Below are positions 29,321 through 40,423 of a stretch of 54,788 nt of DNA, piece after piece. This DNA comes from a virus. The translations under genes and the position numbers were made by a program. The stretch is from IMG/VR virus record IMGVR_UViG_3300045988_124937, positions 1 to 54,788 of that record, one strand, 5' to 3'. The first letter of the stretch is position 1; every line of letters begins with the position of its first letter. The notes under the pieces are model-generated. The model did not search any database and had not been told where the DNA came from. It saw nothing but the letters and a program-made list of their open reading frames with translations.

Positions 29321-29332
29321 GTCGTGTCCTTT

Positions 29333-29458: not shown

Positions 29459-29860
29459 CTAGGGGTTCACGAGACGGGCGATGATGTACGGTTCCCCGTC
29501 CATCTTGAAGACTTCGATTACCTCGCGTCCGTATTCATCGCGCCAGCCTACGGTCTTGGCGAACATGGAGGCGGGGAAACGCAGGCCATTTGGGAAGTCG
29601 ATGAACTTGACGGGGCGCTTGTGTACGTCCGGGATGGTGACGGGGGTGCCTCGGTAGATGCGGTATGCGATAGCGCTGCGGCAACCTCGGTAGCAGAAAC
29701 TTTCACCGGGGTGTTCCTTCGCAAACATTTTGAGGAAGTTGCGGACGGAGAGGCGTTCCCCTGCGGCGCGCAGTTTCTCTTCGATAGGGGAGTATTTGTA
29801 GATTGGTTCATCGAAGTCTGCCCAGCAGTGGACAGTTTCATCTAGGGGATTTTGGGTCAT
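29459..29860 (-). CDS. Truncated member (6 of 6) of the TLRN / KY.IAE paralog family
   Basis: ERLSVRNFLKMFAKEHP and EVIEVFKMDGEPYIIARLVNP align with the five upstream paralogs. It lacks their N-terminal DPNDPLNEV segment. Confidence 0.75.
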   Translation of the reverse strand: MTQNPLDETVHCWADFDEPIYKYSPIEEKLRAAGERLSVRNFLKMFAKEHPGESFCYRGCRSAIAYRIYRGTPVTIPDVHKRPVKFIDFPNGLRFPASMFAKTVGWRDEYGREVIEVFKMDGEPYIIARLVNP

Positions 29861-30213
29861 TGTTCAGTGTCCTTTCGGTCATTGTTGAAGGGTTCAGGGA
29901 GGGTCAGCCCGCCACAGGCTTCAACGTACTTACCGACGAGCCATCGCACGGTGTGGGCGGTGATGACTCCAGCTCCCCGGAGGTGGTCTACGTGGAGCTT
30001 CTTCTCAGGGTCGAACCACAGCTTCATGGAGATTCGTCCAGCGCGGGAGTTGCTGATCTTGATTCCGTTGAGGCTTGCGGCGCAGACGTTACCGGACTTG
30101 TAGTAGTCCATGCTGAGGCCGATGGCTTCCTTCCAGTTCTGGATGTAGAAGCGGTGCTCTCCGGTCTTGGGGTGTACCCAGTGGTTTAGTTCCAGCTTCT
30201 TCTCTTCGCTCAT
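29857..30213 (-). CDS. Hypothetical protein (118 aa)
   Basis: RBS gaaaggacccctactgATG. Confidence 0.75.
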   Translation of the reverse strand: MSEEKKLELNHWVHPKTGEHRFYIQNWKEAIGLSMDYYKSGNVCAASLNGIKISNSRAGRISMKLWFDPEKKLHVDHLRGAGVITAHTVRWLVGKYVEACGGLTLPEPFNNDRKDTEQ

Positions 30214-30235
30214 CAGTAGGGGTCCTTTCGGTTAG

Positions 30236-30274
30236 CACCCCCGGCACCAGCACGGGTACCAGTGCCGGGGGTGT
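30236..30274 (-). other. 12-bp hairpin CACCCCCGGCAC / GTGCCGGGGGTG (15-nt loop)
   Basis: Perfect inverted repeat in the 30214-30287 gap. The stem sequence is shared with the 14962 hairpin and module D. Confidence 0.55.
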
Positions 30275-30287
30275 GGGGATGGGGTGG

Positions 30288-30800
30288 CTAGGTGTTGTCC
30301 ACCTCAGCGATGACGTACTTCTTGTCGTTCAGCTCGAAGACGTCCAGCACCTTGTATGCGTTACCAACACGCCAGCCCGCGGTCAGATCCTCGATAGACA
30401 CCGGCAAGCTGATGTCGTGCCCCGAAGCCCAGAGCTGGGAGCGGCCGTCGGGGGTGGTGACATACCTGTTGAAGACACGGACGATGCGGTAGTACTTGCG
30501 GGTTGAGCGCGAGCGCACGGTGTACCAGCTGTCCGGGTCGGGCGTCATCATGTACGTCTTGAGCAGGTTTCGGAGGGTGTGGGGCTCCCCCGAGTCCTCA
30601 AGGAGGGTGCGTACCAGAGAGTCGGTTACGGCGGAGGAGTCCGTCGCTACCTGCCCGGGCTCCACAATCTCGTTCAGCGGGTCGTTAGGGTCAAGCTCCG
30701 GCTTACTCTCGCTGCCACGGATAGCTTCGACGTGCTGGGCGAGTTCGGTCAGAGCGCGGGTGATGTCTTCCAGGCTCATGGTCTGGTTGTTCTCAGTCAT
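30288..30800 (-). CDS. Paralog family member 5 (170 aa)
   Basis: Motifs ELDPNDPLNEIV, GEPHTLRNLLKTY, WYTVRSRSTRKYYRI, LTAGWRVG, KVLDVFELNDKKYVIAE. Confidence 0.8.
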   Translation of the reverse strand: MTENNQTMSLEDITRALTELAQHVEAIRGSESKPELDPNDPLNEIVEPGQVATDSSAVTDSLVRTLLEDSGEPHTLRNLLKTYMMTPDPDSWYTVRSRSTRKYYRIVRVFNRYVTTPDGRSQLWASGHDISLPVSIEDLTAGWRVGNAYKVLDVFELNDKKYVIAEVDNT

Positions 30801-30823
30801 TGGTTAATTCCTTTCTTAGGGGG

Positions 30824-31339
30824 TTAGCGGTTGAGAAGCTCCGCGATGAGGTACTTATCCTCTCCCAGCTCAAAGGTGTCCAGTACCCTTGCCACGCGGG
30901 GGATAGCCCAACCGGCCGTCACCGTCTCCGGGGATACCGGGAGGTAGAAGTCGTGAGTGCGGGTGACGCCAAGCGTGGTACCGTAAGGGTCGGTGGGCTG
31001 GTTGCGAAGCTCCGCCAAGTAGACGCGGTAACGCTTGCTGGTTGCTCGGGAGCGGACGGTGTACCACTTATCCGGGTCGTTCGTCTGCATGATCGCCTTG
31101 CAGAAGTTGCGGAGTGTGCGGGGCTCACCGGACTCTTCGAGGATTCGGTTTGCGGCGTTGTCGGTGTCCGTGGATGCGTCCGTAGCAGTCCAGGTGTTGC
31201 CCACCAGAACCTCGTTCAGCGGGTCGTTCGGGTCGAGCTCCGGCGCAGTCTCGGTGCCACCACGGATAGCTTCGACCTTCTGGGTCAGCTCGGTCAGGGC
31301 GGCGACGATAGCCGCCAGGTCGTTGTTGTTGGTAGTCAT
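30824..31339 (-). CDS. Paralog family member 4 (171 aa)
   Basis: ELDPNDPLNEVL, GEPRTLRNFCKAI, WYTVRSRATSKRYRV, VTAGWAIP, RVLDTFELGEDKYLIAE. Confidence 0.8.
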   Translation of the reverse strand: MTTNNNDLAAIVAALTELTQKVEAIRGGTETAPELDPNDPLNEVLVGNTWTATDASTDTDNAANRILEESGEPRTLRNFCKAIMQTNDPDKWYTVRSRATSKRYRVYLAELRNQPTDPYGTTLGVTRTHDFYLPVSPETVTAGWAIPRVARVLDTFELGEDKYLIAELLNR

Positions 31340-31361
31340 TGGTTAGTTCCTTTCTTAGGGG

Positions 31362-31892
31362 TTACTTTTTGTCTGCGGAGGCGATGATGTACGTGTTGCC
31401 ATCGGCCTCGTAGGTTTCGAGAATCTTGTGCTCCCACCCATCTTCGCGGAAAATCCACCCGACAAGCTCCGAGACTCGCTTGTTCTGAGGGATGGGGAAG
31501 GCGGTGGTGTATCGCAGGGGGCTGAAAGTATTACCAGCGGGGGCTTCCGTGCGGCACTCAATGACGCGGAAGATACCGTACAACTTGCCGTCGTCATAAC
31601 TACGGTAGGAGAACCAATTCTCTGCGGGGTGCAGGCTCGCATACGCCATGAGGACGTTGCGGAGGGTTTCCGGCTTACCCTTCTCAGCGAGGTAGCTGTC
31701 TACGCGAAGGCGCTTGATTGCGGAAACGGGGGTGAAAAGCCCACGGGGGTTACCCACGACCTTGTTCAGAGGGTCGGTCGGGCCAGGCTCCGGCGCGTTC
31801 TCGCGATTGCTACCACGGGTAGCTTCAATCATCTTGAGCACCTCTGCAAGAGCTTCGAGCAGGGATACCAGGTTAGGGTTGTTCTCGGTCAT
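31362..31892 (-). CDS. Paralog family member 3 (176 aa)
   Basis: PGPTDPLNKVV, GKPETLRNVLMAY, WFSYRSYDDGKLYGI, LVGWIF, KILETYEADGNTYIIAS. Confidence 0.8.
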   Translation of the reverse strand: MTENNPNLVSLLEALAEVLKMIEATRGSNRENAPEPGPTDPLNKVVGNPRGLFTPVSAIKRLRVDSYLAEKGKPETLRNVLMAYASLHPAENWFSYRSYDDGKLYGIFRVIECRTEAPAGNTFSPLRYTTAFPIPQNKRVSELVGWIFREDGWEHKILETYEADGNTYIIASADKK

Positions 31893-31916
31893 TGGTTAGT
31901 TCCTTTCGGTAGGGGG

Positions 31917-32420
31917 TTAGGAGAGTTCAACGATGATGTACTTGTAGTGGCTGTCTTCAAAGGTGTCAATCACCTTGCTCCACTTGGCGAACGTCCAGCC
32001 AACCAGCGAGGGCAGGACGGTGAAGTGGGGAAGGGGGAAGTCCTTAGTACGATACACCGGGTCGTGCTCGCGCCCATCAGGTGACTTGACCTGGCACGCT
32101 TCAAGGCGGTGAACACGGTAGGAGGCCTCAGTGGTGGGAGAGTCGATGGTGTAGTACTCATAACTGACGAAGGAGTCGTTGCTGTTGGTGATGTACGCCT
32201 TGAGGATGTTGCGGAGGGTGCGGGGAGCACCCCATCTCTGCAAGGTGTCGAAGGCGTCCCGCTCCTCGTACTTGTTCGGATCTCGCACTGTCCACCCATC
32301 CGACACCACCTCATTCAGCGGGTCGTTAGGGTCGAGCGTGCTACCACGGAGGTCCTCGAGCTGCTGGGATACCTCAACCAGGGTTGCGGCGAGGCTTTCC
32401 GGGTTAGGGTTGTCAGCCAT
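31917..32420 (-). CDS. Paralog family member 2 (167 aa)
   Basis: TLDPNDPLNEVV, GAPRTLRNILKAY, LVGWTF, KVIDTFEDSHYKYIIVE. Confidence 0.8.
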   Translation of the reverse strand: MADNPNPESLAATLVEVSQQLEDLRGSTLDPNDPLNEVVSDGWTVRDPNKYEERDAFDTLQRWGAPRTLRNILKAYITNSNDSFVSYEYYTIDSPTTEASYRVHRLEACQVKSPDGREHDPVYRTKDFPLPHFTVLPSLVGWTFAKWSKVIDTFEDSHYKYIIVELS

Positions 32421-32438
32421 TGTTCAGTTCCTTTCGGG

Positions 32439-32951
32439 TTAGTTCTTGGAGGTTTCCAGCATCTCGCAGATGAGGTACTGATCGTCGTTCATCTCGAAGG
32501 CTTCGAGCACCTGAGCAAAGTCCCCGATGCGCCAGCCCACCAGTCCACCCTCAACCAAGCGCGGGATGGAGAAGTCGCTGGTGGAGTACACGGTCACCGT
32601 CTTGCCCCCGGCGTGGGTGCAAAGCTGGCGAGAGGCTAGGTAGATGCGGTAGACCTTGCCGGTCTTCTCGGAGACCACGGAGAAGGAGCGGGATACGGTT
32701 TCCCTGCGCATGAGTTCCTTGAGAACGTTGCGGATGGTGCAGGGTCGCCCGACCTGTTCGAGGCGGCGGAAGGCATCCGCGCCGTGCTGGAAGAGGGTGT
32801 TCACGGAGGTGTGCTTCGTCAGCACTTCGTCCAGCGGGCCGTTGGCGGTAGGATTCGGTTCGGTATGCTCACCAGAGGTAATGCCGAGGTGGGCGGTGAT
32901 GGTGCGGAGAAGTCCCTCGATGTTTTCCAGGGTCTGCTTGTTGGTGGTCAT
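32439..32951 (-). CDS. Paralog family member 1 (170 aa)
   Basis: Start at cgaaaggaactaaccacaATG (MTTNKQTLENIEG). ANGPLDEVL, GRPCTIRNVLKEL, LVGWRIG, QVLEAFEMNDDQYLICE. Confidence 0.8.
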   Translation of the reverse strand: MTTNKQTLENIEGLLRTITAHLGITSGEHTEPNPTANGPLDEVLTKHTSVNTLFQHGADAFRRLEQVGRPCTIRNVLKELMRRETVSRSFSVVSEKTGKVYRIYLASRQLCTHAGGKTVTVYSTSDFSIPRLVEGGLVGWRIGDFAQVLEAFEMNDDQYLICEMLETSKN

Positions 32952-32956
32952 TGTGG

Positions 32957-33358
32957 TTAGTTCCTTTCGTTGGCGTAGACCAGAGTGGCGTAGTCCAGGC
33001 GGTCTATGTATGAGAGTAGGTGGGTGACGATGTTGTGGACGATAGCGCAGTGGAGCATGTCGCTGAGCGGCTTTCCGGGGCGGGCTGCCCCGTTGTCTCG
33101 CAACCACTTGTAGCCGGGGTCATGTGCGAGGCTTCGTGAGGCTTCGCCTGCGTAGAAGTGGCGGCGGGGCTGGGCTTCCTTAGCTCGCTCGTCTCGTGCG
33201 CCGGTGTTCACCATGTGGTCGAAGTGCTTCTCCCACACCCCAAGGTCGATGTACCGTTCCGGGTTGGTCTTGAGGTCAAACAAGCCTTTCAGGTAGGCGG
33301 AGCACCACGGGTAACGCTCGTGGTATGTGGCGCTGATGTCTTCGGGTACGAAGCTCAC
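32957..33358 (-). CDS. Hypothetical protein (133 aa)
   Basis: Compact ORF overlapping the upstream stop. Confidence 0.7.
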   Translation of the reverse strand: MSFVPEDISATYHERYPWCSAYLKGLFDLKTNPERYIDLGVWEKHFDHMVNTGARDERAKEAQPRRHFYAGEASRSLAHDPGYKWLRDNGAARPGKPLSDMLHCAIVHNIVTHLLSYIDRLDYATLVYANERN

Positions 33359-33732
33359 GAGTTATCCTCCTCGGGTAGGGGGTGTAGGGTGATGAGGTGT
33401 TCCCACTTCTTGCAACCGAGCATGTCGTTCTTCAAGACGTTGTAGGCGTACTCTCGGATGGAGTCGCAGGTAGGCTCGGGGCGTTCGGTTCGGTAGGCTT
33501 CCTGTTCGCCTACACGTTCCTTCCAGTACCACCACATGTCGTGCCAGTTCGTTTCCCCGCAGTCGGGGCAGGTGACCGCGACTGCGACATCTTCTGCCCA
33601 TAGCAGGGGTTCGTGGAGGTACCGCTGGGTGCCTTCGAGTTCAGAGATGATGTCCTCATAGGTGCCGTCGAAGGTCAGCGTTTCGTGGTGCTTGAGGGTG
33701 TTCACCGTCAAGCGGTATTTCTGTTCGGTCAT
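33355..33732 (-). CDS. Hypothetical protein with CxxC (possible Zn ribbon)
   Basis: VTCPDCGETNWH plus distal Cys residues. Confidence 0.7.
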   Translation of the reverse strand: MTEQKYRLTVNTLKHHETLTFDGTYEDIISELEGTQRYLHEPLLWAEDVAVAVTCPDCGETNWHDMWWYWKERVGEQEAYRTERPEPTCDSIREYAYNVLKNDMLGCKKWEHLITLHPLPEEDNS

Positions 33733-33796
33733 GATGTGTTCCTTATTGGTTGGTCTTGGTCAGTAGTGCGAGTAAGAATCCGAGGTAGCCCAATGT

Positions 33797-34141
33797 CTAC
33801 GCCTCCTCGCCGGGGTGGAGAAGAAACCCACCGAACAACGAACCTAGTAGCGTAATGCAGTGGATTATGGTTAGCAGACCCATGCCGTCCGACCACGAGG
33901 TGCCCCAACACCACCACCACCAGTTGCAGAGGAAGACCGCCCCAATGTCCAGCAGGAGCATTAGGAACACGGCTCCAGCGGCGGCGGCGCCGTAATCGTG
34001 AGCTTCCTCGTAGTCGGGAGCGCACCCAAGCACCCAGTACCCCCAAGCTCCGTTGATTACGGCGAGCATAGCCAGCACCACGAGCGGGTGGACGAGCCGG
34101 GCGGCAGACTCGAAGCTGAACGTGTTGAGCCAGTCAATCAT
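33797..34141 (-). CDS. Trp-rich integral membrane protein (114 aa)
   Basis: Three hydrophobic segments. CNWWWWCWGTSWSDG motif. Confidence 0.7.
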   Translation of the reverse strand: MIDWLNTFSFESAARLVHPLVVLAMLAVINGAWGYWVLGCAPDYEEAHDYGAAAAGAVFLMLLLDIGAVFLCNWWWWCWGTSWSDGMGLLTIIHCITLLGSLFGGFLLHPGEEA

Positions 34142-34143
34142 GG

Positions 34144-34674
34144 CTAACCCACCTCCTGAGCCACACGCTCGATGAGCACGAAGCTACCGAAGGGCAGGCG
34201 GGTCTTCACGGTGGCACCGCCTGCAATGGTTGCCTCGTCGCCGTCGCTCTCGACGTAGCGGGCGATGCGGTAGTGCCCACGGTACGGTAGGTCGGACAGT
34301 TCGCCGTCGAGGATCGTGTCGGGTCGTACCTCGCCGCGTACCTTGAGGTTGCCGAGGTTGCCTGCGGAGTTATCCAGGTGAAGCCACAGGGCGCGCTCAC
34401 CGGAGAGAAGGTCGAGTCCGTAGGGGGTGAGGGAGGCGAGGAACAGCTCGGGGGAGTCCGTGTCTTCGCCCAGCGCCAGCGGTAGGTTGGTGTCGGAGGT
34501 GCCGCGCACCTGTAGCATGGCGGTTAGAATCTCGTCGGCGGTGGCGTACAGGGGCTTAGCTCCCAGCGCCGCCTCGATAATCTCAGGTCGCCCGAAGGCG
34601 GCGAGGTAGGGGGAGTACGCCACGTCGGGGGTATCGTCGGTGAAGCGCAGGGCGTCGAAGGTCTTTACGGTCAT
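34144..34674 (-). CDS. Hypothetical protein (176 aa)
   Basis: Tightly packed ORF. Weak resemblance to the 34696 gene (LTP..., G.YR.A.Y, GS.VL.E). Confidence 0.75.
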   Translation of the reverse strand: MTVKTFDALRFTDDTPDVAYSPYLAAFGRPEIIEAALGAKPLYATADEILTAMLQVRGTSDTNLPLALGEDTDSPELFLASLTPYGLDLLSGERALWLHLDNSAGNLGNLKVRGEVRPDTILDGELSDLPYRGHYRIARYVESDGDEATIAGGATVKTRLPFGSFVLIERVAQEVG

Positions 34675-34695
34675 TGGGTGTGTTCCTTCCGGGGG

Positions 34696-35241
34696 TTAGT
34701 GACGGGTGCCGGTCTGTTCCAGCAGGACGTAGGAGCCGTCCTCAAGCGGGGTGTAGTATTCCTCGCCGTTGGGGAGATATGCGGTGCCAGCCGATACGTA
34801 GCAGTACTCGGCTACGCGGTATGAGCCCACGAAGTCGAAGATGGTTACCGACGCATCGAGAAGGGTATGCGTGGTGAGGTGGTCGTATGGTGCGGTGTGG
34901 GATACGAAGCCCAGAGCCTCACCCCCAGCGTTGAGCCGGTACGACAGGCTTCGGGGGAACTCAGCATTTCCTAGCAGGCACACGTCCGTTGGGGTTAGCT
35001 GGGCGAAGACCAGGCGGGGTGAGGTATAGGGGGAACCGAAGGCGAGTCGGGCAGCTTCGCCTTTGCCGTGCGCTACGTCCAGGCAGGCGGCGAAGATATG
35101 TTCTCGGGAGTAGTACCGGGCTTCGCCGGTGCGACCAGACACAGCAGAGGGGGCGCCTAGCGAACTGGTGAACTCTTCACGGGCATCTTCGGGGGTGTAG
35201 GCGTGGAAGTCGGAGGCGTTATAGAGGGTGAAGTCAGGCAT
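34696..35241 (-). CDS. Hypothetical protein (181 aa), possible distant paralog of 34144..34674
   Basis: RBS ctagaaaggtaccccaATG. Confidence 0.75.
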   Translation of the reverse strand: MPDFTLYNASDFHAYTPEDAREEFTSSLGAPSAVSGRTGEARYYSREHIFAACLDVAHGKGEAARLAFGSPYTSPRLVFAQLTPTDVCLLGNAEFPRSLSYRLNAGGEALGFVSHTAPYDHLTTHTLLDASVTIFDFVGSYRVAEYCYVSAGTAYLPNGEEYYTPLEDGSYVLLEQTGTRH

Positions 35242-35253
35242 TGGGGTACCTTT

Positions 35254-35730
35254 CTAGGGGTCGTTTCGGCGGTAGGTATAGATGAGCACGCCGTCCTCAC
35301 GGGTCGAGGAGATGCGCTCCCAGGGAGCATCACCCCACGGGTCGTAGGTTCCGGCAACGTCGTTTGTGTAGCCGGGCAGAGAGCGGATAAGCTCACGTTC
35401 GAGGTCGTCGGGGTACCATACCCACGTGTCCCAGTCGTGCAGTGCCCACAGCAGGGAGTTTCGGAGGTAGGGGAAGTGGTCGCCGGTGGTGAAGTGTGAG
35501 AAGTTATCCAGGTCGTCCGGTGCGGTGCCCTCGACTCGCTCAACGCGGTTATGAAGCGGGGTACCGTCGAACATGGCGGCGTCGAGTCCGTCGCAGAGGG
35601 TCAGCTCGCCGTCGTGCTTGGTAACCGTGGTGCCTACGTGGGTCGTTACTTCCACGGGCAGGCAGTCGAAGTCGCCTTCAAACCACGGGATGCGGAGCTC
35701 AACGACGGCGTACTTCGGTTCATTAGCCAA
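35254..35730 (-). CDS. Hypothetical protein (158 aa)
   Basis: Compact ORF overlapping the upstream gene by 8 nt. Confidence 0.75.
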   Translation of the reverse strand: MANEPKYAVVELRIPWFEGDFDCLPVEVTTHVGTTVTKHDGELTLCDGLDAAMFDGTPLHNRVERVEGTAPDDLDNFSHFTTGDHFPYLRNSLLWALHDWDTWVWYPDDLERELIRSLPGYTNDVAGTYDPWGDAPWERISSTREDGVLIYTYRRNDP

Positions 35731-36628
35731 CGAACACCACCGCCCGGCATACTACAGCTTCACAGTCGAGGTGGAAGTCGTGGTTTTCAGCGTCGCCCAG
35801 CACTTCTACCTCAGCGTCCAGCTCAGGGTCGGTGCCGTAGCTCTTCGTCCAGTACCCAAGGTAGGTTTCCAGGTTGCGGCGTGCTTCTCGGGGAATTCTA
35901 TAGCGGGTCTTACCGCTTGAATCAAGGTAGCGGTTAAGGAAGCCGTCGGTAATCCAGTTGCCGGCTACCGGAGAGTAGCCGCTATCACCTTCGGTATAGC
36001 CGCCCTCGCCCTCGTTGCTGCCGAAGTTCCACAACACCAGCTCATAGGCGGGTTCGCCCCTGTGGGAATTAGCCAGCAGGAGCAGGCGAACCTCGCGGCG
36101 GTTACCGGGGTGTACCCAGACACAGGGCTTTCCGTCTTCGGCTAAGCCTGGCTTCAAGATGAACAGGTCTTCGAGCTGGCTCCGGTAATCGTCGCTCAGC
36201 CAGTCAGCGACGTCAGGAAGCCCGGAAGCGTCGTCAGGCTCGCAACAGTCGTCGAAAGGCACCTCGGGTAGGTACAAGCCCTTGCTCTGGAGCCAGGCTC
36301 GCGCCTTATCGTCGGTTGCATAGTCTTCGAGCAGGCTGTGGTAGAAGCGACCGAGGGCTTCGCAACAGTCGTCCTTACCACTGATGAGCCGGTCACAAAG
36401 GTCACGGAACATCTCGTCCATCTTCGCGTCGATGTCGTAAGTGTAGCTACCGGGTACCTCGTAGTACTCATCAAAGACTTCACCCATCTCTGACACTTCA
36501 CCGTTCATATGGGAGCCAAGAATAAGCGCGTCGGGTGTATCGTCGGTGCGCAGGTGGAGCCAATCGCCCAGTTCATAGCCAATCAGCAGGGGGAACGGCT
36601 CGAAGTCGAGCCCGTATGAGGTGGACAC
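35723..36628 (-). CDS. Highly acidic Asp/Glu-rich protein with CC dipeptides (301 aa)
   Basis: GTG start after gaaaggactccaccGTG. DDCCEALG and DDCCEPDD. First gene after tRNA-mimic module A. Confidence 0.75.
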   Translation of the reverse strand: MSTSYGLDFEPFPLLIGYELGDWLHLRTDDTPDALILGSHMNGEVSEMGEVFDEYYEVPGSYTYDIDAKMDEMFRDLCDRLISGKDDCCEALGRFYHSLLEDYATDDKARAWLQSKGLYLPEVPFDDCCEPDDASGLPDVADWLSDDYRSQLEDLFILKPGLAEDGKPCVWVHPGNRREVRLLLLANSHRGEPAYELVLWNFGSNEGEGGYTEGDSGYSPVAGNWITDGFLNRYLDSSGKTRYRIPREARRNLETYLGYWTKSYGTDPELDAEVEVLGDAENHDFHLDCEAVVCRAVVFVG

Positions 36629-36662
36629 GGTGGAGTCCTTTCAACTAGGGGTTTACAGTGGA

Positions 36663-36734
36663 GCGCCGCTCACTACAGGGGCGCAAGTTCCCCGGCATGG
36701 AGTCGAACCGTGCCTAAGCCTACCGAGGCGGGGA
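36663..36734 (-). repeat. tRNA-mimic leader module A (hairpin 36663-36684; minihelix core 36689-36734)
   Basis: Minus strand: TCCCC gcctcggtaggctta GGCACGG TTCGACT CCATGCC GGGGA a ctt GCGCC..GGCGC. Start codon lies 35 nt after the hairpin. Confidence 0.7.
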
Positions 36735-36769
36735 TACCGGAAGAAATTATCGGTTATGTGCGGTGCAAT

Positions 36770-37048
36770 TTATCGGTTTACGGCGGGGTGAATCACCTCC
36801 AATCCTTCGGGGATAGGGCGCGGATTGCGCACCGGCGCGGGTTCAGGTTCGCGCGGTTCGTCTATGAACTCGACGGTATCGCGGAACATACGCAGGGTGT
36901 ACAGCTCAGCGTGCAGGTGCTCCAGCTCGCGGCGTTGCCAGATGTTCAGGGCGAACAGCGCACCGGCTATTATCAGCACCACCACCGAAGCAATGAAGAT
37001 CAGGGCGGGTAGGGCGTCCAGGGTTACGGAAGCAACGGACATTGGCAT
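36770..37048 (-). CDS. Small membrane protein (92 aa)
   Basis: TM segment LPALIFIASVVVLIIAGALFAL. TAATG overlap upstream. Confidence 0.7.
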   Translation of the reverse strand: MPMSVASVTLDALPALIFIASVVVLIIAGALFALNIWQRRELEHLHAELYTLRMFRDTVEFIDEPREPEPAPVRNPRPIPEGLEVIHPAVNR

Positions 37049-37413
37049 TAGAAACTGAACCTCAATCCTGAATTCTCGAAGGCGGAGCGCACTTCACCGG
37101 AGCCGTCGCCGCCCAGAAATTCCATGTCCACCCAGTCATAGCCAACACCTACAGTTCGGGTGTACTTACGGCGGGACTCAGAGTAGCGGAACTTCACCGG
37201 CGGGGCGATACCCAATCGCCCATACACGCCCATTAGGTCGTGGTAATCGTCGCCAACGATACCGAAGGTACGGGTCGGGTTGTACTTGCTTTCGCGCTCG
37301 AAGCTGATAGCCAGGCGAGACAGCTTCCAGTATTCCAGCGCTTCCTTGAGCGCGCCGCTCTCAGCGGCGGCGAGTATCGCGGCCTTGTATTCAGCGGGGG
37401 ACATGGTGGACAT
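37048..37413 (-). CDS. Hypothetical protein (121 aa), paralog of 39611..39967
   Basis: Start at cgaaaggatcccttATG. Shared motifs: Y..LM..Y..LG...P..FR.S....YT...G.GYDW.....LGG...G....AF...GL.F. Confidence 0.75.
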   Translation of the reverse strand: MSTMSPAEYKAAILAAAESGALKEALEYWKLSRLAISFERESKYNPTRTFGIVGDDYHDLMGVYGRLGIAPPVKFRYSESRRKYTRTVGVGYDWVDMEFLGGDGSGEVRSAFENSGLRFSF

Positions 37414-37444
37414 AAGGGATCCTTTCGATAAGAGCTGGCCGGGG

Positions 37445-37714
37445 CTATTCACCGGCGGGTTCGAGGGCAAGACTATGCAGGGTACACCCGAACTCAGGTG
37501 CGAGGTGCGAGTGTACAAACCGTGCGTAGGCTTCCACCGTTGCACGGGTGGGGAGCGGCGGCGGGGCGAACGGCGGAAGGTTCCAGTCGGAGGCGACCTT
37601 AGCCAGGGCGTCTACGTATTCTTCCAGGGTTCGCGGGACGCGGCCGGGTGTACTAGTGGTTAGCTCGCTTGAGGGCTTACGCCACACGGCGGTAAGGGTG
37701 TACAGGTCGGGCAT
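37445..37714 (-). CDS. Hypothetical protein (89 aa)
   Basis: RBS ctagaaggaacctactATG directly after module B. Confidence 0.7.
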   Translation of the reverse strand: MPDLYTLTAVWRKPSSELTTSTPGRVPRTLEEYVDALAKVASDWNLPPFAPPPLPTRATVEAYARFVHSHLAPEFGCTLHSLALEPAGE

Positions 37715-37744
37715 AGTAGGTTCCTTCTAGTAGGGGTTACATAA

Positions 37745-37824
37745 GCGCCAGGGTAGCGCAAGCGCCCGCCGGTGGAGTCGAACCACCGGATATGACCGTC
37801 CGGGCTGTCCAGGTTACGCCTGGA
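37745..37824 (-). repeat. tRNA-mimic leader module B (hairpin 37745-37759; core 37763-37804; upstream hairpin 37806-37824)
   Basis: Minus strand: GTCCAGG..CCTGGAC, then GCCCG gacggtcatat CCGGTGG TTCGACT CCACCGG CGGGC g ctt GCGC taccctg GCGC. Confidence 0.75.
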
Positions 37825-38308
37825 CGCGGGGGGTTAGGGGTTCGCCGTTGAGTTCCAGCGGTTCGCTGGAGGTCAGGGTGTACTTGAGGAAGTAGTTACC
37901 GTCGCCGTCCCTAGACCAGAATTCACAGCGCTCTCCAACGGTGGTTGAGATGTCATCACCGAAGTTTTCGTGCATGACGTTCTTGATGTGACGGGCGCGG
38001 CTGGTCACGTTGGTTCCGTCCTTGAGGTCTGATGCCGCCCACTCGAAGAAGTCCTTAGCGCGGGACGGCTTAGCGCCCTGTAGCCAGCCGTCCGTATCGA
38101 AGTCCAGCATGTCGATTAGGTCGCTAGGAAGGCTTGCGTAGTGCTTGGTGCCACGGCGTAGTACACGACCTTCTTCATCATGGAAGGCACACAGGATACT
38201 GACAGTAAGCAGCTCGCCGCCCACAATAGCGGATACTAGACCGCCGCCGTTGTTGTTCCTTCGGAAAACCTGGAGGGTTACGGGGTAGGTATAGGTGGGG
38301 GTGGACAT
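37814..38308 (-). CDS. Hypothetical protein (164 aa)
   Basis: RBS ctggaaggaaacccctATG after module C. Confidence 0.75.
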   Translation of the reverse strand: MSTPTYTYPVTLQVFRRNNNGGGLVSAIVGGELLTVSILCAFHDEEGRVLRRGTKHYASLPSDLIDMLDFDTDGWLQGAKPSRAKDFFEWAASDLKDGTNVTSRARHIKNVMHENFGDDISTTVGERCEFWSRDGDGNYFLKYTLTSSEPLELNGEPLTPRVQA

Positions 38309-38337
38309 AGGGGTTTCCTTCCAGTAGAGGAATAGGT

Positions 38338-38428
38338 GCGCCAGGGTAGCGCGAGTTCCCCGGCATGGAATCGAACCATGCCTACGTGGTGGGTAGCCAA
38401 CCGTAGCGGGGATACCGGGTATACCGGT
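38338..38428 (-). repeat. tRNA-mimic leader module C (hairpin 38338-38352; core 38357-38412; upstream hairpin 38414-38428)
   Basis: Minus strand: ACCGG tatac CCGGT a TCCCC (25-nt insert) GGCATGG TTCGATT CCATGCC GGGGA a ctc GCGC taccctg GCGC. Confidence 0.75.
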
Positions 38429-38429
38429 G

Positions 38430-38990
38430 CTAGTCGGTGAACACGCCTACCCGGATAGGGTAGGCAATAGCGCCGTCGGTAGTGTCGATAGCTTCTACAG
38501 CGCGGTCTACGTTATCGACATAGTGGAAGCCTTTCGCGGGGCTTCCGACGAGATTCTGCATAAACTCAGCAAAGGAAGAATCCCAACCAAGCCTATATTT
38601 CAGGTCTTCGCGGAACGACTCTTCCGCTTCTTCGTTGATACGGTCGGTACCCTCTTCACCCGTGGGTACATTGGGATACATGAGAATGTAATCGGTGATG
38701 AGGTCGCGGCGCTTATCCATCAGCTCCATTTCTTCGCAATCACCGGGGCAACAGCCGGGTCGGTCATGAGTCTCGAAGATGCGGCGCATATCGTCATTCG
38801 AGTATGTAAACCCGAAGCGGTTGCGGTATTCCACTTCTTCATCATCAGCAATAAGCATGTCCTCCACGGCGAACTCAGGGACACCCCAGAACGAGATGTA
38901 ACCAAAATCCGGGTGGTACAGGTGAGCACCGGGGGTTTCCACGTGGTCATCTATGACAAGGAACAGGTTAGTATCGCGGGTAGTGTACAT
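38430..38990 (-). CDS. Acidic protein with CC/CxxC cluster (186 aa)
   Basis: Start at ctggaaggactctacctATG (MYTTRDTNLF). RPGCCPGDCEEMEL. Confidence 0.75.
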   Translation of the reverse strand: MYTTRDTNLFLVIDDHVETPGAHLYHPDFGYISFWGVPEFAVEDMLIADDEEVEYRNRFGFTYSNDDMRRIFETHDRPGCCPGDCEEMELMDKRRDLITDYILMYPNVPTGEEGTDRINEEAEESFREDLKYRLGWDSSFAEFMQNLVGSPAKGFHYVDNVDRAVEAIDTTDGAIAYPIRVGVFTD

Positions 38991-39019
38991 AGGTAGAGTC
39001 CTTCCAGTAGGGGTGTGAA

Positions 39020-39099
39020 GCACTAGGGACAGTGCAAGCGCCCCGGCACAGAATCGAACCGTGCCTATGCCTCCAAGGCGGGGCTACCGGGTGTACCGG
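39020..39099 (-). repeat. tRNA-mimic leader module D (hairpin 39020-39035; core 39040-39084)
   Basis: Minus strand: GCCCC gccttggaggcata GGCACGG TTCGATT CTGTGCC GGGGC g ctt GCACT gtccct AGTGC. The inner stem has one G.U pair on the minus strand. Confidence 0.75.
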
Positions 39100-39102
39100 C
39101 GG

Positions 39103-39489
39103 TTAGTTATGGGTGCGAACCTTTGCGGTGGCAAGTACAGGGTACGCTAGGGCATCACCAAGGTCTAGCGGCGTGTCATTGAAGCCGAAGTTGGAGCGTA
39201 TAGCGGTGAACTCGACGAACTCAGCACCATCTACAGCGAGGCTCACAAGGCTACGCAAACCCCCGACGCGGTACTCTTCGTTCAAAGCGGCTACGAGCTC
39301 ACGTTCTTCACAGATGAGGGCACCACGGAAAAGTTGGTCATAGGCGCTGCATACCGCCCCGGCATCAACGGGGGTAACCGGGATCGGTTCGTGGAGGTAT
39401 CCGTAGCCCGGTATGTACAGAGCGGCGCTGTTAGAGTACGCCTGAATCGCCAGATGCATGGGTACTGAGGTGTCGGAATTGGCGGACAT
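39103..39489 (-). CDS. Hypothetical protein (128 aa)
   Basis: Start at ccgaaaggaacccctATG (MSANSDTSVPMH). The longer ORF to 39831 reads through module E. Confidence 0.7.
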   Translation of the reverse strand: MSANSDTSVPMHLAIQAYSNSAALYIPGYGYLHEPIPVTPVDAGAVCSAYDQLFRGALICEERELVAALNEEYRVGGLRSLVSLAVDGAEFVEFTAIRSNFGFNDTPLDLGDALAYPVLATAKVRTHN

Positions 39490-39517
39490 AGGGGTTCCTT
39501 TCGGTAGGGGTATGAAT

Positions 39518-39604
39518 ACGCTAGGTATAGCGTGAGTACCCGCCGCCGGATTTGCACCGGCGGTTAGACCCAAGCTAGGGCGGGCTGTCCTGGCTATGCA
39601 GGAC
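39518..39604 (-). repeat. tRNA-mimic leader module E (hairpin 39518-39533; core 39538-39585; upstream hairpin 39587-39604)
   Basis: Minus strand: GTCCTG catagc CAGGAC a GCCCG (17-nt insert) CCGCCGG TGCAAAT CCGGCGG CGGGT a ctc ACGCT atacct AGCGT. Confidence 0.65.
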
Positions 39605-39610
39605 GGGGGT

Positions 39611-39967
39611 TTAGTCAAAGGACAGACCGGCGCTACGGAACGCGTTTGCGGTGCGCCCGTCCATAGACCCGCCCAACAGGTTGCAAGACTTCCAGTCATA
39701 GCCCCAACCAGTAGAGAAGGTGTAGCGGCTCTTATCCTTCGATTCACGAAAGCGGGTCGGGTGGGTAAGACCAAGGTCAGCGTAGATAGCCATAAGGCGG
39801 TCATACTGCACACCGCTAATTTCGTACACATGTGTACCCGTGTTGGGGTTCATGCGGACAAGGCGGGTAACAAGGTTGAATAGGTGGTGCTTCTTAAGAA
39901 GTTCCGCAAGCTTTCCGCTCTTGGAGGCTTCAATAACAGCGGTCTGAACCTGTTCTTCAGTGGACAT
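39611..39967 (-). CDS. Hypothetical protein (118 aa), paralog of 37048..37413; first gene of the early operon
   Basis: RBS cgaaaggacttattATG. See the paralog motifs listed for 37048..37413. Confidence 0.75.
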   Translation of the reverse strand: MSTEEQVQTAVIEASKSGKLAELLKKHHLFNLVTRLVRMNPNTGTHVYEISGVQYDRLMAIYADLGLTHPTRFRESKDKSRYTFSTGWGYDWKSCNLLGGSMDGRTANAFRSAGLSFD

Positions 39968-39998
39968 AATAAGTCCTTTCGATAGGGGTTATGAAAGC

Positions 39999-40075
39999 TC
40001 GACTAGGGGTCGAAACGTTCCCTAGCGAGGGCTCGAACCTCGCACCCGCTACGCGGGCGCTCCAACAGCTAGGGA
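39999..40075 (-). repeat. tRNA-mimic leader module F (hairpin 39999-40013; 57-nt D-armless tRNA-like core 40019-40075)
   Basis: Minus strand: TCCCTAG ctgttggag CGCCC GCGTAGC GGGTG CGAGG TTCGAGC CCTCG CTAGGGA a cgt tTCGAC ccta GTCGA. Confidence 0.75.
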
Positions 40076-40093
40076 TACCTTTTACCTTTTCCC

Positions 40094-40121
40094 ATTACAC
40101 TATTCCATTATCAAACATCAA
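40094..40121 (-). promoter_or_regulatory. Possible promoter P0 (TTGATG-16-TGTAAT)
   Basis: Reverse complement of catcaa (40116-40121) and attaca (40094-40099). Confidence 0.3.
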
Positions 40122-40147: not shown

Positions 40148-40176
40148 AGTATATCAGGTCTTAGACAGCTTGTCAA
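40148..40176 (-). promoter_or_regulatory. Early promoter P1 (TTGACA-17 nt-TATACT)
   Basis: Reverse complement reads ggacTTGACAagctgtctaagacctgaTATACTga. Confidence 0.75.
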
Positions 40177-40224
40177 GTCCTTCAATCTGAAATTATTTCG
40201 ACCGGGGTTTTCCCGTTCGTGATT

Positions 40225-40253
40225 AGTATATCAGCTCTTTATCAGTTTGTCAA
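40225..40253 (-). promoter_or_regulatory. Early promoter P2 (TTGACA-17 nt-TATACT)
   Basis: Reverse complement reads TTGACAaactgataaagagctgaTATACT. Confidence 0.75.
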
Positions 40254-40394
40254 ATCGTTTATTTTCGGTTTCGGATTCTCCACGTAAACGACACGTGCGT
40301 TTCCACCGTACCTACTTTTTGGGAATAGGTGGACTCTACAGGCAACCTAGGGGCTAAAAGCCCCGGCGACAAACTTTATTTAGTTGATATGAAT

Positions 40395-40423
40395 ATCGTA
40401 GCAAGCTCTAGACAGCTTGTCAA
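40395..40423 (-). promoter_or_regulatory. Early promoter P3 (TTGACA-17 nt-TACGAT)
   Basis: Shares the 17-nt string agacagcttgtcaagtc with P1. Confidence 0.6.

Follow-up and report, generated by a model that had tools for sequence, protein, structure and literature searches.

Which role do the structured elements play that lie among the first genes of the early operon in this virus, and how far do they resemble tRNAs? The window analysed here, the whole stretch of 54,788 nt, carries six of them, A to F (Table 1); the core of each module is called TLS (tRNA-like structure), a truncated tRNA mimic.

Six modules at the start of the early operon

An earlier note on this DNA had described six minus-strand elements, all of which are present at the positions it gave, except that its 5' end of B was one base short; the loop, outer-stem and inner-stem sequences and the purine-CTY behind them (ACG in F) could likewise be verified on the sequence. 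When a covariance model was run over every position and both strands of the 54.8-kb window with filters off, modules A-F were matches 1-6 (E = 3e-10 to 0.21; seventh-ranked match, E = 1.9), all six on the minus strand, which is the transcribed one, in agreement with the earlier claim of acceptor/T-arm mimicry in sense orientation only. Against an expectation of 1.19, the motif GGTTCGANYC has six occurrences in the window; all are on the minus strand, and five fall inside modules. ARAGORN calls no tRNA in the window, as had been anticipated, and no Rfam family matches there at gathering score; a sub-threshold match was obtained only for F (mascRNA, 31.6 bits, E = 0.0011). Folded alone, each core adopts the proposed structure as its MFE fold (-20 to -33 kcal/mol); for whole intergenic regions the advantage over shuffles is only modest (z +0.4 to -3.0), and their MFE folds sometimes lack the outer stem.

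All six modules had been placed in intergenic gaps, which is correct for A-E but not for F, found in the 5' UTR of gene 1 with the putative promoter P2 about 70 nt upstream. TLS-F and its counterparts stand in 5' UTRs, without cistrons to separate. Genes 5, 6 and 7 are consecutive with no TLS between them, and from gene 8 onward genes are packed tightly and no more TLS occur; the elements are limited to promoter-proximal genes, and downstream genes manage without them. The pattern search for the leader/RBS motif gave 10 matches (0.98 expected), and a variant form of this motif precedes gene 8.

Table 1. Features of the promoter-proximal early operon, in order of transcription; all on the minus strand (disc., discriminator)
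Feature	Position	Description	Basis
P3, promoter-like	40395..40423	TTGACA-17-TACGAT, TG-extended	consensus scan, 10/12 positions
P1, promoter-like	40225..40253	TTGACA-17-TATACT, TG-extended	consensus scan, 11/12 positions
P2, promoter-like	40148..40176	TTGACA-17-TATACT, TG-extended	consensus scan, 11/12 positions
TLS-F	40018-40075	5' UTR of gene 1; cloverleaf-like; acceptor 6-7 bp; D-like stem 3 bp, loop GTTGG; anticodon-like stem 6 bp with triloop; T arm 5-6 bp, loop TTCGAGC; -1 A; disc. A, then CGT	sequence; 17.8 bits (model R2)
Hairpin	39998..40014	3 nt past TLS-F disc.; proposed 5' cap, gene 1 mRNA	fold
Leader/RBS motif	39974..39988	CCCCTAYNGRAAGGA	pattern search
Early gene 1	39611..39967	118 aa, no family, paralogue of gene 6	
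Hairpin	39587..39604	GTCCTG/CAGGAC, ends 1 nt before TLS-E +1; proposed 3' cap, gene 1 mRNA	
TLS-E	39537-39585	intergenic; acceptor GCCCG/CGGGT (one G.U); D-like CCC/GGG hairpin; T arm 7 bp, loop TGCAAAT, retaining U54, C56, A57, A58; -1 A; disc. A, then CTC	sequence; 29 bits, E = 0.013 (0.0013 with filters off)
Hairpin	39518..39533	ACGCTA/TAGCGT, 3 nt past TLS-E disc.	
Leader/RBS motif	39496-39510	CCCCTAYNGRAAGGA	
Early gene 2	39103..39489	128 aa, no family	
Hairpin	39086..39100	GCCGG/CCGGT, ends 1 nt before TLS-D +1	
TLS-D	39039-39084	intergenic; acceptor GCCCC/GGGGC; D-like GCCT/AGGC, loop TGG; T arm GGCACGG/CTGTGCC (one G.U), loop TTCGATT; -1 A; disc. G, then CTT	sequence; 60.2 bits
Hairpin	39020..39035	GCACT(G)/(T)AGTGC, 3 nt past TLS-D disc.	
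Leader/RBS motif	38999-39013	CCCCTAYNGRAAGGA	
Early gene 3	38430..38990	186 aa, no family	
Hairpin	38414..38428	ACCGG/CCGGT, ends 1 nt before TLS-C +1; longer-flank MFE fold differs	local fold
TLS-C	38356-38412	intergenic; acceptor TCCCC/GGGGA; D-like GCTA/TGGC, loop CGGT; additional CTAC/GTAG hairpin, 7-nt loop; T arm GGCATGG/CCATGCC, loop TTCGATT; -1 A; disc. A, then CTC	sequence; 53.5 bits
Hairpin	38338..38352	GCGCTA/TGGCGC, 3 nt past TLS-C disc.	
Leader/RBS motif	38316-38330	CCCCTAYNGRAAGGA	
Early gene 4	37814..38308	164 aa, no family	
Hairpin	37807..37825	GTCCAGG/CCTGGAC, ends 1 nt before TLS-B +1	
TLS-B	37763-37805	intergenic; acceptor GCCCG/CGGGC; 11-nt GACGGTCATAT; T arm CCGGTGG/CCACCGG, loop TTCGACT; -1 A; disc. 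G, then CTT	sequence; 56 bits
Hairpin	37745..37759	GCGCTA/TGGCGC, 3 nt past TLS-B disc.	
Leader/RBS motif	37722-37736	CCCCTAYNGRAAGGA	
Early gene 5	37445..37714	89 aa	
Gene 6	37048-37413		
Gene 7	36770-37048		
Hairpin	36736..36754	weak, ACCG/CGGT, ends 1 nt before TLS-A +1; within a motif that both phage clades conserve	
TLS-A	36688-36734	intergenic; acceptor TCCCC/GGGGA; D-like GCCT/AGGC, loop CGGT; T arm GGCACGG/CCATGCC (one C.A mismatch), loop TTCGACT; -1 A; disc. A, then CTT	sequence; 62.1 bits
Hairpin	36663..36684	GCGCC...GGCGC, 3 nt past TLS-A disc.	
Early gene 8	35723..36628	301 aa, GTG start	

Likeness to tRNA and covariation

The TLS is a mimic of the tRNA acceptor/T-arm and more than a bare minihelix. 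It has in common with tRNA the coaxial stack of acceptor and T stem, which amounts to 12 bp in every split (5+7, 6+6 or 7+5), and a canonical T-loop, with G53, C56, R57, A58, T60 and C61 invariant and T54 in 37/38 sequences; it differs in having no anticodon and a 3' tail that is never CCA. The 5'-side insert of 11-26 nt reported previously is present, but it is itself structured: it is a D-arm-like hairpin that covaries and whose loop has a conserved GG, and this GG can pair with the T-loop to give the tRNA 'elbow'. C and F contain a second, anticodon-arm-like hairpin in addition, and the view that a D arm is missing from the modules cannot be upheld. TLS-B represents the minimal 43-nt type, the commonest across other phages.

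That the stems covary, as had been stated, is borne out by 93-97% paired cells and by changes on both sides in 12-14 of 16 pairs, in alignments that are model-fitted and hence biased towards the structure; controls with partners slid by 1-3 columns reach 31-60% over all sets (31-57% in the two related clades). Clades 1 and 2 have 95.0% and 93.4% of cells paired, with both-side changes in 12/16 and 13/16 pairs, and a covariation score of 0.49-0.50 as compared to 0.15-0.17 for shuffles. Among 72 distinct sequences from other phages, where the acceptor helix is predetermined by the search pattern, 96.5% of cells are paired and 14/16 pairs show both-side changes. Compensatory changes were found by RNAalifold in 8/21 pairs of the TLS-F orthologues (n=6), and the G.U pairs in TLS are compatible with the transcribed strand only.

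Module borders and occurrence in other phages

Internal modules follow one order: upstream hairpin, A(-1), TLS, purine discriminator, C74, hairpin, conserved leader and ribosome-binding site. C74, a position outside both the covariance model and the search pattern, is found in 41/41 and 71/74 sequences and A(-1) in 35/41, while C occupies position 75 in only 6/74. Of 38 distinct upstream flanks, 28 have a hairpin whose end lies exactly 1 nt short of +1 (5.4% in shuffles), and 20 of 39 downstream flanks have one that starts at +3 (3.1% in shuffles). These flanking hairpins comprise at least 10 unrelated sequences: at the position of the hairpin before TLS-B, orthologues have GTAGTGA/TCACTAC or GTACAGG/CCTGTAC, and the stem after TLS-F varies from TCGAC/GTCGA to TCGGC/GTCGA and TCGACA/TGTCGA. 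For the modules, the computations show the structure, strand and position, along with the covariation, the conservation of the junctions and the geometry of the flanks.

TLS constitute a widespread actinobacteriophage family: over 100 IMG/VR contigs have them, and so do cultured phages of Gordonia, Mycobacterium (MyraDee and the classic mycobacteriophage L5), Streptomyces and Corynebacterium. The earlier note knew of no such arrangement in a phage; we found no description of the element in Rfam 15 and the literature searched, but the arrangement itself occurs in many phages. Where annotation allowed a check, TLS are intergenic, oriented as the genes and themselves unannotated. All ten TLS of Gordonia phage Morgana are co-oriented with genes, divergent operons included, nine lie in annotated gaps, and they punctuate the first genes past the divergent promoter region. 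In both MyraDee and L5, the Pleft-proximal early operon includes a TLS. L5 carries one in the gene 88-89 gap and D29 has none there, so an individual copy can be dispensable. In the relatives L052, L073, L102 and L125, outside the present window, AUG immediately follows C74, which leaves no room for a Shine-Dalgarno sequence.

Proposed processing of the early transcript

What could such modules be for? The earlier note had proposed that host tRNA-processing enzymes cut the early transcript, which is consistent with the flanking hairpins, the conserved junction and the start codons next to C74 in relatives. We cautiously lean towards host RNase P cutting 5' of the TLS and RNase Z or RNase E 3' of it, freeing hairpin-capped mRNAs; the cleavage steps, the enzymes involved and the stabilising effect are what we infer from the features described above. 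Each module would then be a processing cassette of the early polycistronic RNA, built on a truncated tRNA mimic that retains the features recognised by tRNA-end-processing enzymes. Host RNase P would cut between A(-1) and +1, and the upstream mRNA would end in a hairpin plus 1 nt, blocking 3' exonucleases. A second cut, between the purine discriminator and C74, would be made by host RNase Z or actinobacterial RNase E, leaving at the 5' end of the downstream mRNA at most 3 free nt and then a hairpin, which could shield it from 5'-end-dependent RNase E or J and would be followed by a standard leader and Shine-Dalgarno sequence. In some relatives, the cut at C74 adjoining AUG would yield a leaderless mRNA. 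Host enzymes are implied because no phage-encoded RNA-processing enzyme is recognisable.

A precedent is known from M. smegmatis, where RNase P cuts the tRNA-like part of YrlA, a D/T-arm mimic, in vitro, and where this module is cleaved and receives a CCA tail in vivo (PMC4201824). Mycobacterial RNase E cuts RN|CNU, directly 5' of C (PMC10641625). In the modules, the hairpin abutting -2 leaves the RNase P protein subunit almost no single-stranded leader, and the 3' tail of the TLS is not RCCA. The efficiency of bacterial RNase P could drop with a short single-stranded leader or a non-RCCA tail. These two points weigh against the processing reading, as do the TLS in 5' UTRs, the downstream genes that manage without them, the copy missing from D29, the modest folding advantage of whole intergenic regions and the bias of the alignments towards the structure. 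Processing would also free one mini-tRNA of 42-58 nt per gene, and these excised products may instead be the point of the arrangement, acting in trans as decoys.

If the processing of the early RNA takes place as proposed, the first genes, which probably serve host takeover, would be expressed from separate, uniformly ended and stabilised mRNAs, and the ends of these mRNAs would be the same irrespective of which of the tandem promoters fired.

tRNA-like structures of the early operon

The phage genome under study is almost complete (~55 kb, GC ~60%) and belongs to a tailed phage, with the tape measure, large terminase, portal and major capsid genes on the plus strand and the genes for DNA polymerase, primase/helicase and a helicase on the minus strand. 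In the early operon of the minus strand, the six elements described in the earlier note, here called tRNA-like structures (TLS-A to TLS-F, see the table), lie at the places claimed on the transcribed strand, with loops, stems and trailers as described; the borders could also be confirmed, except at the 5' end of B, which had been misplaced by one base (37805). In isolation, every core has the proposed structure as its minimum free energy fold. The T-arm motif GGTTCGANYC, which had been said to occur in the sense orientation only, is present at six sites (1.2 expected), all of them on the minus strand, and a covariance model run at every position of both strands places the six modules at ranks 1-6, the next match having E = 1.9. 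The z-scores of whole intergenic regions were modest (+0.4 to -3.0), with the outer stem not always recovered, and because of this thermodynamics alone was not counted as evidence. As anticipated, ARAGORN calls no tRNA gene in the window, nor does it call any in 12 related loci; RF00005 gives no match even at E <= 10, and no Rfam family matches the window at its gathering score. With a permissive Rfam threshold TLS-F alone finds a match, to mascRNA (RF01684; 31.6 bits, E = 0.0011, gathering threshold 42.5).

The elements had been regarded as incomplete tRNAs, possessing neither D nor anticodon arm and carrying an insert of 11-26 nt on the 5' side. The view that they are no full tRNAs stands, as no tRNA is called and a true anticodon arm is absent, but the insert is structured: it forms a D-arm-like hairpin, whose stem covaries as well. 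In A, C and D this is a 4-bp hairpin (GCCT/AGGC, GCTA/TGGC) with GG in the loop, in E the hairpin has 3 bp (CCC/GGG), GG standing at its 3' end, and in B the insert is merely GACGGTC. C and F contain an extra second hairpin, which resembles an anticodon arm and is a short substitute for a true one; for TLS-F a four-helix cloverleaf was predicted independently by RNAalifold. The cores measure about 42-58 nt, and the proposed coaxial helix of acceptor and T arm (~12 bp) amounts to 12 bp in every copy, split 5+7, 6+6 or 7+5. Among 38 distinct relatives the residues G53, C56, R57, A58, T60 and C61 of the tRNA T-loop consensus are invariant, T54 is kept in 37, position 55 is T or G, and GG is found in most D-like loops; T-loop consensus and D-loop GG, able to form an elbow as in canonical tRNAs, are both present. 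Because the D-like GG, the T-loop consensus and the 12-bp stack are kept, the TLS are anticodon-less tRNA mimics retaining the elbow and the acceptor/T stack, that part of a tRNA which is read by RNase P, RNase Z and the CCA-adding enzyme. The minimal-substrate features of RNase P and RNase Z can be recognised, namely the ~12-bp stack, the T-loop and 1-3 unpaired nucleotides after the discriminator. The sole exception at T54 is a clade-2 TLS in the related locus L026, with C at T-loop position 54 (GGGGGCTCGACTCCCCC).

Relatives were recovered from IMG/VR by a pattern search and a terminase search; they form two clades (terminase identity 97% and 72%) sharing the same divergent layout, and in both the TLS occupy the first few kb of the early operon, one copy residing in the 5' UTR. 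Two successive covariance models (R1, R2) found 34 and 46 copies in 570 kb, all on the early-transcribed strand. MAFFT, applied to 20 cores of mixed type, misaligned the 5' acceptor strand, and the model was built from eight sequences of one geometry and then iterated; R2 caught the F type weakly (17.8 bits) and did not list the 'GCGTAC' type of clade 2, and both types were treated by structural scan and RNAalifold. The covariation of the stems noticed between the copies of the window extends to both clades: 95.0% and 93.4% of the pairs are standard, both sides have changed in 12 and 13 of the 16 pairs, the covariation scores are 0.49-0.50 as against 0.15-0.17 in shuffles, and sliding the partner by 1-3 columns brings the paired cells down to 31-57%; these alignments are model-fitted and favour structure, but the margin is large.

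The 3.8-kb region containing the TLS gave zero matches to 50,697 deposited phage records (megablast, blastn), and the phage has no cultured close relative. Its nearest relatives are metagenome contigs of IMG/VR, several of them with 7000000xxx sample numbers, which we take to be Human Microbiome Project samples. The protein relatives of the terminase all belong to actinobacteriophages or to Streptomyces/Kitasatospora prophages (~42% identity), and the best match of the primase is a Glutamicibacter phage. On account of these relatives and samples we infer that the host is an actinobacterium, probably a human-associated one. No TLS were found in the Streptomyces/Kitasatospora prophages with the ~42%-identical terminase; the structures are therefore not bound to the terminase lineage of the window.

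Positions of the TLS and of associated features in the window and in related loci (L-numbers; L165 is phage L5, L167 and L168 are Gordonia phage Morgana)
Feature	Record	Position	Strand	Remark
TLS-F	window	40018-40075	minus	5' UTR of gene 1
TLS-E	window	39537-39585	minus	
TLS-D	window	39039-39084	minus	
TLS-C	window	38356-38412	minus	
TLS-B	window	37763-37805	minus	
TLS-A	window	36688-36734	minus	
Three tandem putative promoters, near-consensus, sigma-70 type	window	40148-40423	minus	TTGACA-17-TATACT with TG extension, aimed leftwards into the long operon
Purine-rich leader GATAATGGAATAGTGTAATGGGAAAAGGTAAAAGGTA	window	~40076-40112		directly before TLS-F
Gene 1	window	39611-39967	minus	paralogue of gene 6
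Gene 6	window	37048-37413	minus	paralogue of gene 1
Motif TTGCACCGCACATAACCGATAAT	window	36746-36768	minus	just upstream of TLS-A
Leader/RBS motif CCCCTAYNGRAAGGA	window	31901-31915	minus	before a gene without TLS
Leader/RBS motif CCCCTAYNGRAAGGA	window	37420-37434	minus	before a gene without TLS
22 consecutive early and middle ORFs	window	~21400-36630	minus	
TLS with C at position 54	L026	5430-5476		clade 2
Motif TTGCACCGCACATAACCGATAAT	L026	~7778-7810		
TLS with abutting AUG	L052	1321-1362		
TLS with abutting AUG	L073	3895-3936		
TLS with abutting AUG	L102	5824-5865		
TLS with abutting AUG	L125	3413-3455		
TLS	phage L5	50426-50472		gene 88-89 gap
Stretch with CTTGACAGCCACC after the TLS	L165	10380-10426		L5 record ~50380-50425
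Tandem TLS pair	L168	32310-32447		Morgana record ~77309-77446
Morgana cassettes	L167	6045-6090, 6900-6944, 7533-7582, 8160-8212, 9036-9087		

Flanking hairpins, leaders and junctions

Counting the first nucleotide of a TLS as +1 and its discriminator as position 73, the internal modules follow a common plan: a hairpin after the upstream stop codon ends exactly one nucleotide (an A) before +1, a second hairpin begins 3 nt past the discriminator, and behind it stands a conserved leader, ACCCCTAY-N-GRAAGGA, followed by the start codon. Of 38 distinct upstream flanks, 28 have a hairpin ending at -2 (5.4% of shuffles), and of 39 downstream flanks, 20 have one beginning at +3 (3.1% of shuffles); these counts are not independent, because the flanks share descent, and at least ten unrelated hairpin sequences are among them. 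Between orthologues the flanking hairpins are swapped wholesale while their position is kept, GTCCAGG/CCTGGAC being replaced by GTAGTGA/TCACTAC or GTACAGG/CCTGTAC. The leader is a separable part of the cassette, since its motif CCCCTAYNGRAAGGA also precedes two genes lacking a TLS.

The base after the discriminator, C74, lies outside both the covariance model and the search pattern. Every one of the 41 distinct modules from the window's lineages has it, as do 71 of 74 in a wide set from other phages; the nucleotide before +1, N(-1), is A in 35 of 41, and a purine discriminator is found in 41 of 41 and, in the wide set, in 70 of 74. Position 75 is seldom C, CCA thus being avoided, and the trailers read CTY or CGN, never CCA. 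RNase Z cuts CCA-less precursors 3' of the discriminator. Mycobacterial RNase E cleaves single-stranded RNA directly 5' of C, with the motif RN|CNU (PMC10641625). RNase E and RNase Z would cut one and the same bond (73/74). At four loci on unrelated viral contigs, involving two unrelated genes, an AUG directly follows C74 (discriminator-C-ATG), which leaves no room for a Shine-Dalgarno sequence; the small protein encoded downstream is conserved between L073 and L102 (MST..HPIIV..C.DCGG). On uncut RNA this AUG is pressed against the 12-bp helix, and the arrangement suggests that cleavage would yield an mRNA with a 1-nt leader, effectively a leaderless one. Leaderless mRNAs are common in mycobacteria.

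Several observations concern the surroundings of the modules. The purine-rich leader of ~40 nt before TLS-F is kept in all clade-1 relatives. None of the first 10 ORFs of the minus-strand operon has a Pfam family, the sole match among them being a weak one of gene 8 to a PHROG family without assigned function. Genes 1 and 6 share 35% identity over 112 aa (E = 3e-24) and have no known domain, and an early protein of clade 2 (L026) ends in a C-terminal G(Y)YW...LGG...G motif resembling theirs. All 22 of the 22 consecutive early and middle ORFs scanned are without a Pfam family, and three ORFs of this stretch compared with PHROGs gave one weak match, to a family of unknown function, making it an unusually dark region even by phage standards. 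Among the early and middle ORFs scanned against Pfam and PHROGs, none was recognised as an RNase, an RNA ligase, a CCA-adding enzyme or Ro60. The motif TTGCACCGCACATAACCGATAAT (CACCGCACAT...ACCGATAA) near TLS-A recurs in L017, L026, L033 and L036, and its conservation between both phage clades exceeds that of the TLS; in the window AACCGATAA occurs as a direct repeat. The motif does not have the spacing of a sigma-70 promoter; it could be the binding site of a regulator or belong to a larger RNA element.

Occurrence in other phages and relation to known RNAs

A wider search with a structure-agnostic pattern (B-type acceptor and short insert, real tRNAs excluded) matched over 119 stretches on IMG/VR contigs measuring 35-107 kb, and R2 confirmed 84 copies in 100 of the loci so found. 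In this set covariation is seen at 14 of 16 pairs, and pairing in 96.5% of the cells; since the pattern fixed the acceptor, the evidence comes from the T arm and the D-like stem alone. Where inspected, these TLS lie between same-strand ORFs of early or replication modules. Among deposited phages, a 46-nt query found further, unannotated copies in many actinobacteriophages, and the arrangement is not peculiar to the window phage: matches occur in Gordonia phages (Cafasso, Aleemily, ObLaDi, Morgana, MakoManhole), Mycobacterium phages (MyraDee, SWU2, HINdeR, Sheen, Odin, Superchunk, Indlulamithi), Streptomyces phage Dagobah and Corynebacterium phage StAB. In MyraDee the TLS occupies the gp89-gp88 gap of the leftward early operon, and that of L5 scores 49.3 bits. 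No TLS was found in phage D29, in agreement with the reported deletion of the 88-89-gap segment of L5 from D29 (PMC5712189). An identity of the TLS with the abundant Pleft non-coding RNA of L5/D29 was rejected, as this RNA lies upstream of gene 89 (PMC5712189). Within ~15 nt of the L5 TLS follows CTTGACAGCCACC, the reverse complement of the stoperator consensus GGTGGc/aTGTCAAG known from the literature; in L5 the repressor would bind next to the TLS, on one leader.

Morgana contains 10 TLS in its right 42.5 kb, nine of them in annotated gaps and all running in the direction of their neighbouring genes, on either arm of a divergent promoter region, where they punctuate the first genes of the leftward operon from gene 161. 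Two are arranged in tandem, 38 nt apart and with no gene between, and because one of this pair falls inside the CDS of gene 150 ('nkf protein'), that CDS is probably a mis-call. In the downstream part of the Morgana cassettes a hairpin starts 1-2 nt past the discriminator; a conserved GGCACGGCACCCAACA leader comes next, and then a Shine-Dalgarno sequence; since this design differs, the same TLS is joined to different leaders in different phages.

Rfam holds no family for the TLS, and in keeping with the earlier note, which knew of no such arrangement in a phage, no description was found in open-access full texts and bioRxiv. In a large catalogue of viral structured RNAs the only tRNA-like candidates mentioned are those overlapping ARAGORN calls (PMC10690425). 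What appears to be new, an earlier description beyond open-access texts and bioRxiv being possible, is the RNA family itself and the conserved, repeated, hairpin-flanked cassette in phage operons; tRNA-like processing signals as such are already known.

By analogy, the nearest functional counterparts would be mascRNA on the one hand and plant mitochondrial t-elements and tRNA punctuation on the other. The mascRNA and MEN-beta RNAs of MALAT1 and NEAT1 are cloverleaf-like mimics without a real anticodon, which end a long transcript and are excised by RNase P and RNase Z. TLS-F aligns over the entire mascRNA model; mascRNA, however, belongs to vertebrate nuclear lncRNAs and is present as a single copy at the 3' end, and membership of its family was rejected, as TLS-F stays below the gathering score and the other five have no match at all. 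In mitochondria real tRNAs or tRNA-like structures stand between coding regions, t-elements being non-decoding as the TLS are, and a non-decoding tRNA-like stem-loop flanking coding regions on the transcribed strand is also what the phages contain. At t-elements, RNase P at the 5' border sets mRNA 3' ends and RNase Z at the 3' border sets 5' ends (Forner et al. 2007, PMC1920247). These are organellar elements with experimentally mapped cleavage, whereas that of the phage TLS is predicted; the TLS, for their part, are a defined family with a 5+7-bp stack, a D-like GG hairpin and an invariant C74, have presumably protective hairpins on both sides and occur several in series per early operon. The actinobacterial and mycobacteriophage RNA YrlA likewise mimics D and T arms and acceptor stem and has no anticodon function (Chen et al. 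2014, PMC4201824), but it is a free-standing ncRNA with a Ro60-binding stem, encoded beside rsr, whereas the TLS are mRNA-embedded and repeated. Classification as Y RNA was discarded, as there is no Rfam Y-RNA match and neither a Ro60-binding stem nor the GNCGAAN0-1G motif, the flanks being short unrelated hairpins; a Ro60 (TROVE) domain was found in none of the 40 window proteins scanned.

The closest phage analogue would be the early operon of T7, in which host RNase III cuts between genes at structured intergenic signals, long imperfect duplexes, and leaves stabilising hairpins. The flanking hairpins of the TLS, in contrast, have just 4-7 bp and surround a tRNA mimic, which implies RNase P and RNase Z or E; RNase III sites, with duplexes of ~20 bp or more, were dismissed, the longest continuous helices being 7 bp. 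The 3' TLS of plant RNA viruses such as TYMV are structures that RNase P and the CCA-adding enzyme recognise; they are terminal, pseudoknotted, CCA-ended and aminoacylatable. Both are viral tRNA mimics, but the phage copies lie inside a DNA-phage transcript, are unknotted and have no CCA, and assignment to the TYMV type failed on the internal position, the plain-helix acceptor and the CTY/CGN trailer. RNase P is also known to cut phage RNAs and operon mRNAs, such as the C4 antisense RNA of P1/P7, M3 RNA of phi80, T4 gene 32 mRNA and operon mRNAs of E. coli (PMC11143913); these are single, idiosyncratic sites without a conserved tRNA-elbow mimic, and unlike the TLS none is a repeated, conserved cassette between successive genes.

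Possible functions and significance

The most likely mechanism, which we favour with moderate confidence, is a cutting of early RNA by host enzymes at the TLS borders. RNase P would cut at -1/+1 and RNase Z or RNase E at 73/74; the upstream mRNA would retain its 3' hairpin and one nucleotide, and the downstream mRNA would start with at most three free nucleotides followed by a hairpin. Both such end arrangements guard against exonucleases and 5'-end-dependent decay in E. coli and B. subtilis. The TLS of the 5' UTR would provide the first mRNA with one standard 5' end, irrespective of which tandem promoter fires. [quoted passage not shown] Against cleavage speak the structured leader adjoining the RNase P site, the absence of RCCA, the confinement of TLS to promoter-proximal genes and the dispensability of the L5 copy in D29.

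Alternatively, the excised mini-tRNA could be the selected product, acting in trans, with mRNA cutting as a by-product: many mimics of elbow and acceptor, probably CCA-tailed, would saturate or mislead factors acting on tRNA ends or elbow, such as acceptor-end abortive-infection toxins, the CCA-adding enzyme, RNase P or modification enzymes. We consider this rather unlikely, even though the several copies per operon, one of them in a 5' UTR with no cistron to separate, the tandem Morgana pair without an intervening gene, the expression at the very start of infection beside ~35 orphan early genes, the acceptor fairly conserved (N-C-C-C-S) in phages of different host genera and the CCA tail which the tRNA-like module of YrlA receives in M. 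smegmatis (PMC4201824) all argue for it. The fixed two-sided hairpin geometry, the standard leader/RBS and the AUG abutting C74 are, however, features of an mRNA, and the TLS are spaced one per gene, unlike clustered tRNA arrays; a decoy of anticodon nucleases is impossible without an anticodon arm, and the free variation of the T and D-like stems leaves no conserved sequence for specific pairing in trans. That machinery and product both matter is a notion we would call unlikely: the host tRNA-maturation machinery would punctuate early operons into hairpin-capped, sometimes leaderless mRNAs, and at the same time CCA-tailed, anticodon-less mini-tRNAs would be released in a flood within minutes of infection and, as decoys or sponges, draw off tRNA-end-directed defences (e.g. 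AbiEii/MenT-type nucleotidyltransferase toxins) or tRNA-processing enzymes, so that the released RNA would be a selected anti-defence or takeover effector and no by-product.

An uncut TLS might also serve in cis as a spacer or insulator between cistrons, by permitting independent RBS folding, blocking Rho loading, stopping exonucleases or recruiting ribosomes via its tRNA-like elbow. The gaps of ~100-140 nt, filled by a dense series of hairpin, TLS and hairpin directly before the conserved leader/RBS, would suit such a role; we judge it quite unlikely, given that the invariant T-loop, GG D-loop, 12-bp stack, A(-1), purine 73 and C74 are needless for it and that an AUG 1 nt past a stable helix, with no Shine-Dalgarno sequence, would by known initiation requirements be uninitiable on uncut RNA. 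It is very improbable that the TLS are relics without RNA function (decayed tRNA genes, attachment-site fragments or small repeated or mobile DNA). Their D-like loops (TTGGT, GTTGG) and T arms do look tRNA-derived, and repeats could drive the mosaic exchange of early genes observed between close relatives, but the covariation disfavours this explanation, three helices being kept by compensatory changes across distant phages; phages of oral metagenomes, of Gordonia and of Mycobacterium all keep the truncated architecture, the strand is always that of the genes, and the copies within a genome are too divergent for recent transposition. As the earlier note had pointed out, the 5' acceptor strand, which attP cores do not have, is present, and each of the six copies lies between early genes or in the 5' UTR of gene 1; tRNA genes or pseudogenes were rejected, with no ARAGORN gene, no RF00005 match and no anticodon arm. 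Transcription terminators or attenuators grading early-operon expression would account for GC-rich hairpins after stop codons and recall the fall in RNA level by more than 90% downstream of the Pleft leader in L5-type phages (PMC5712189). We hardly give them credence, as no U tract follows any hairpin, the trailers have no T runs, a scan of the minus strand finds no terminator-like site at any module, the L5 drop is upstream of gene 89 and not at the TLS, and tRNA-like loops are superfluous for termination.

If the cuts proposed for host enzymes occur, the TLS would be the first case in a bacterium or phage comparable to mitochondrial tRNA punctuation and plant t-elements, a conserved and compact cassette (42-58 nt) which, via RNase P and RNase Z/E, splits one early transcript into several defined, stabilised mRNAs; they suggest, moreover, a route to leaderless mRNAs by processing rather than by transcription initiation. 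The hypothesis is testable in tractable hosts, M. smegmatis and Gordonia rubripertincta, and the element is a natural part with which several genes or guide RNAs could be expressed in mycobacteria and other actinobacteria. As regards annotation, a structured RNA overlaps a called CDS in at least one case (Morgana gene 150), and the TLS would explain long-unannotated intergenic gaps in much-studied actinobacteriophages, including many SEA-PHAGES genomes and L5, sequenced in 1993. As an added RNA family of these phages, they may matter in the conflict between phage and host over tRNA.
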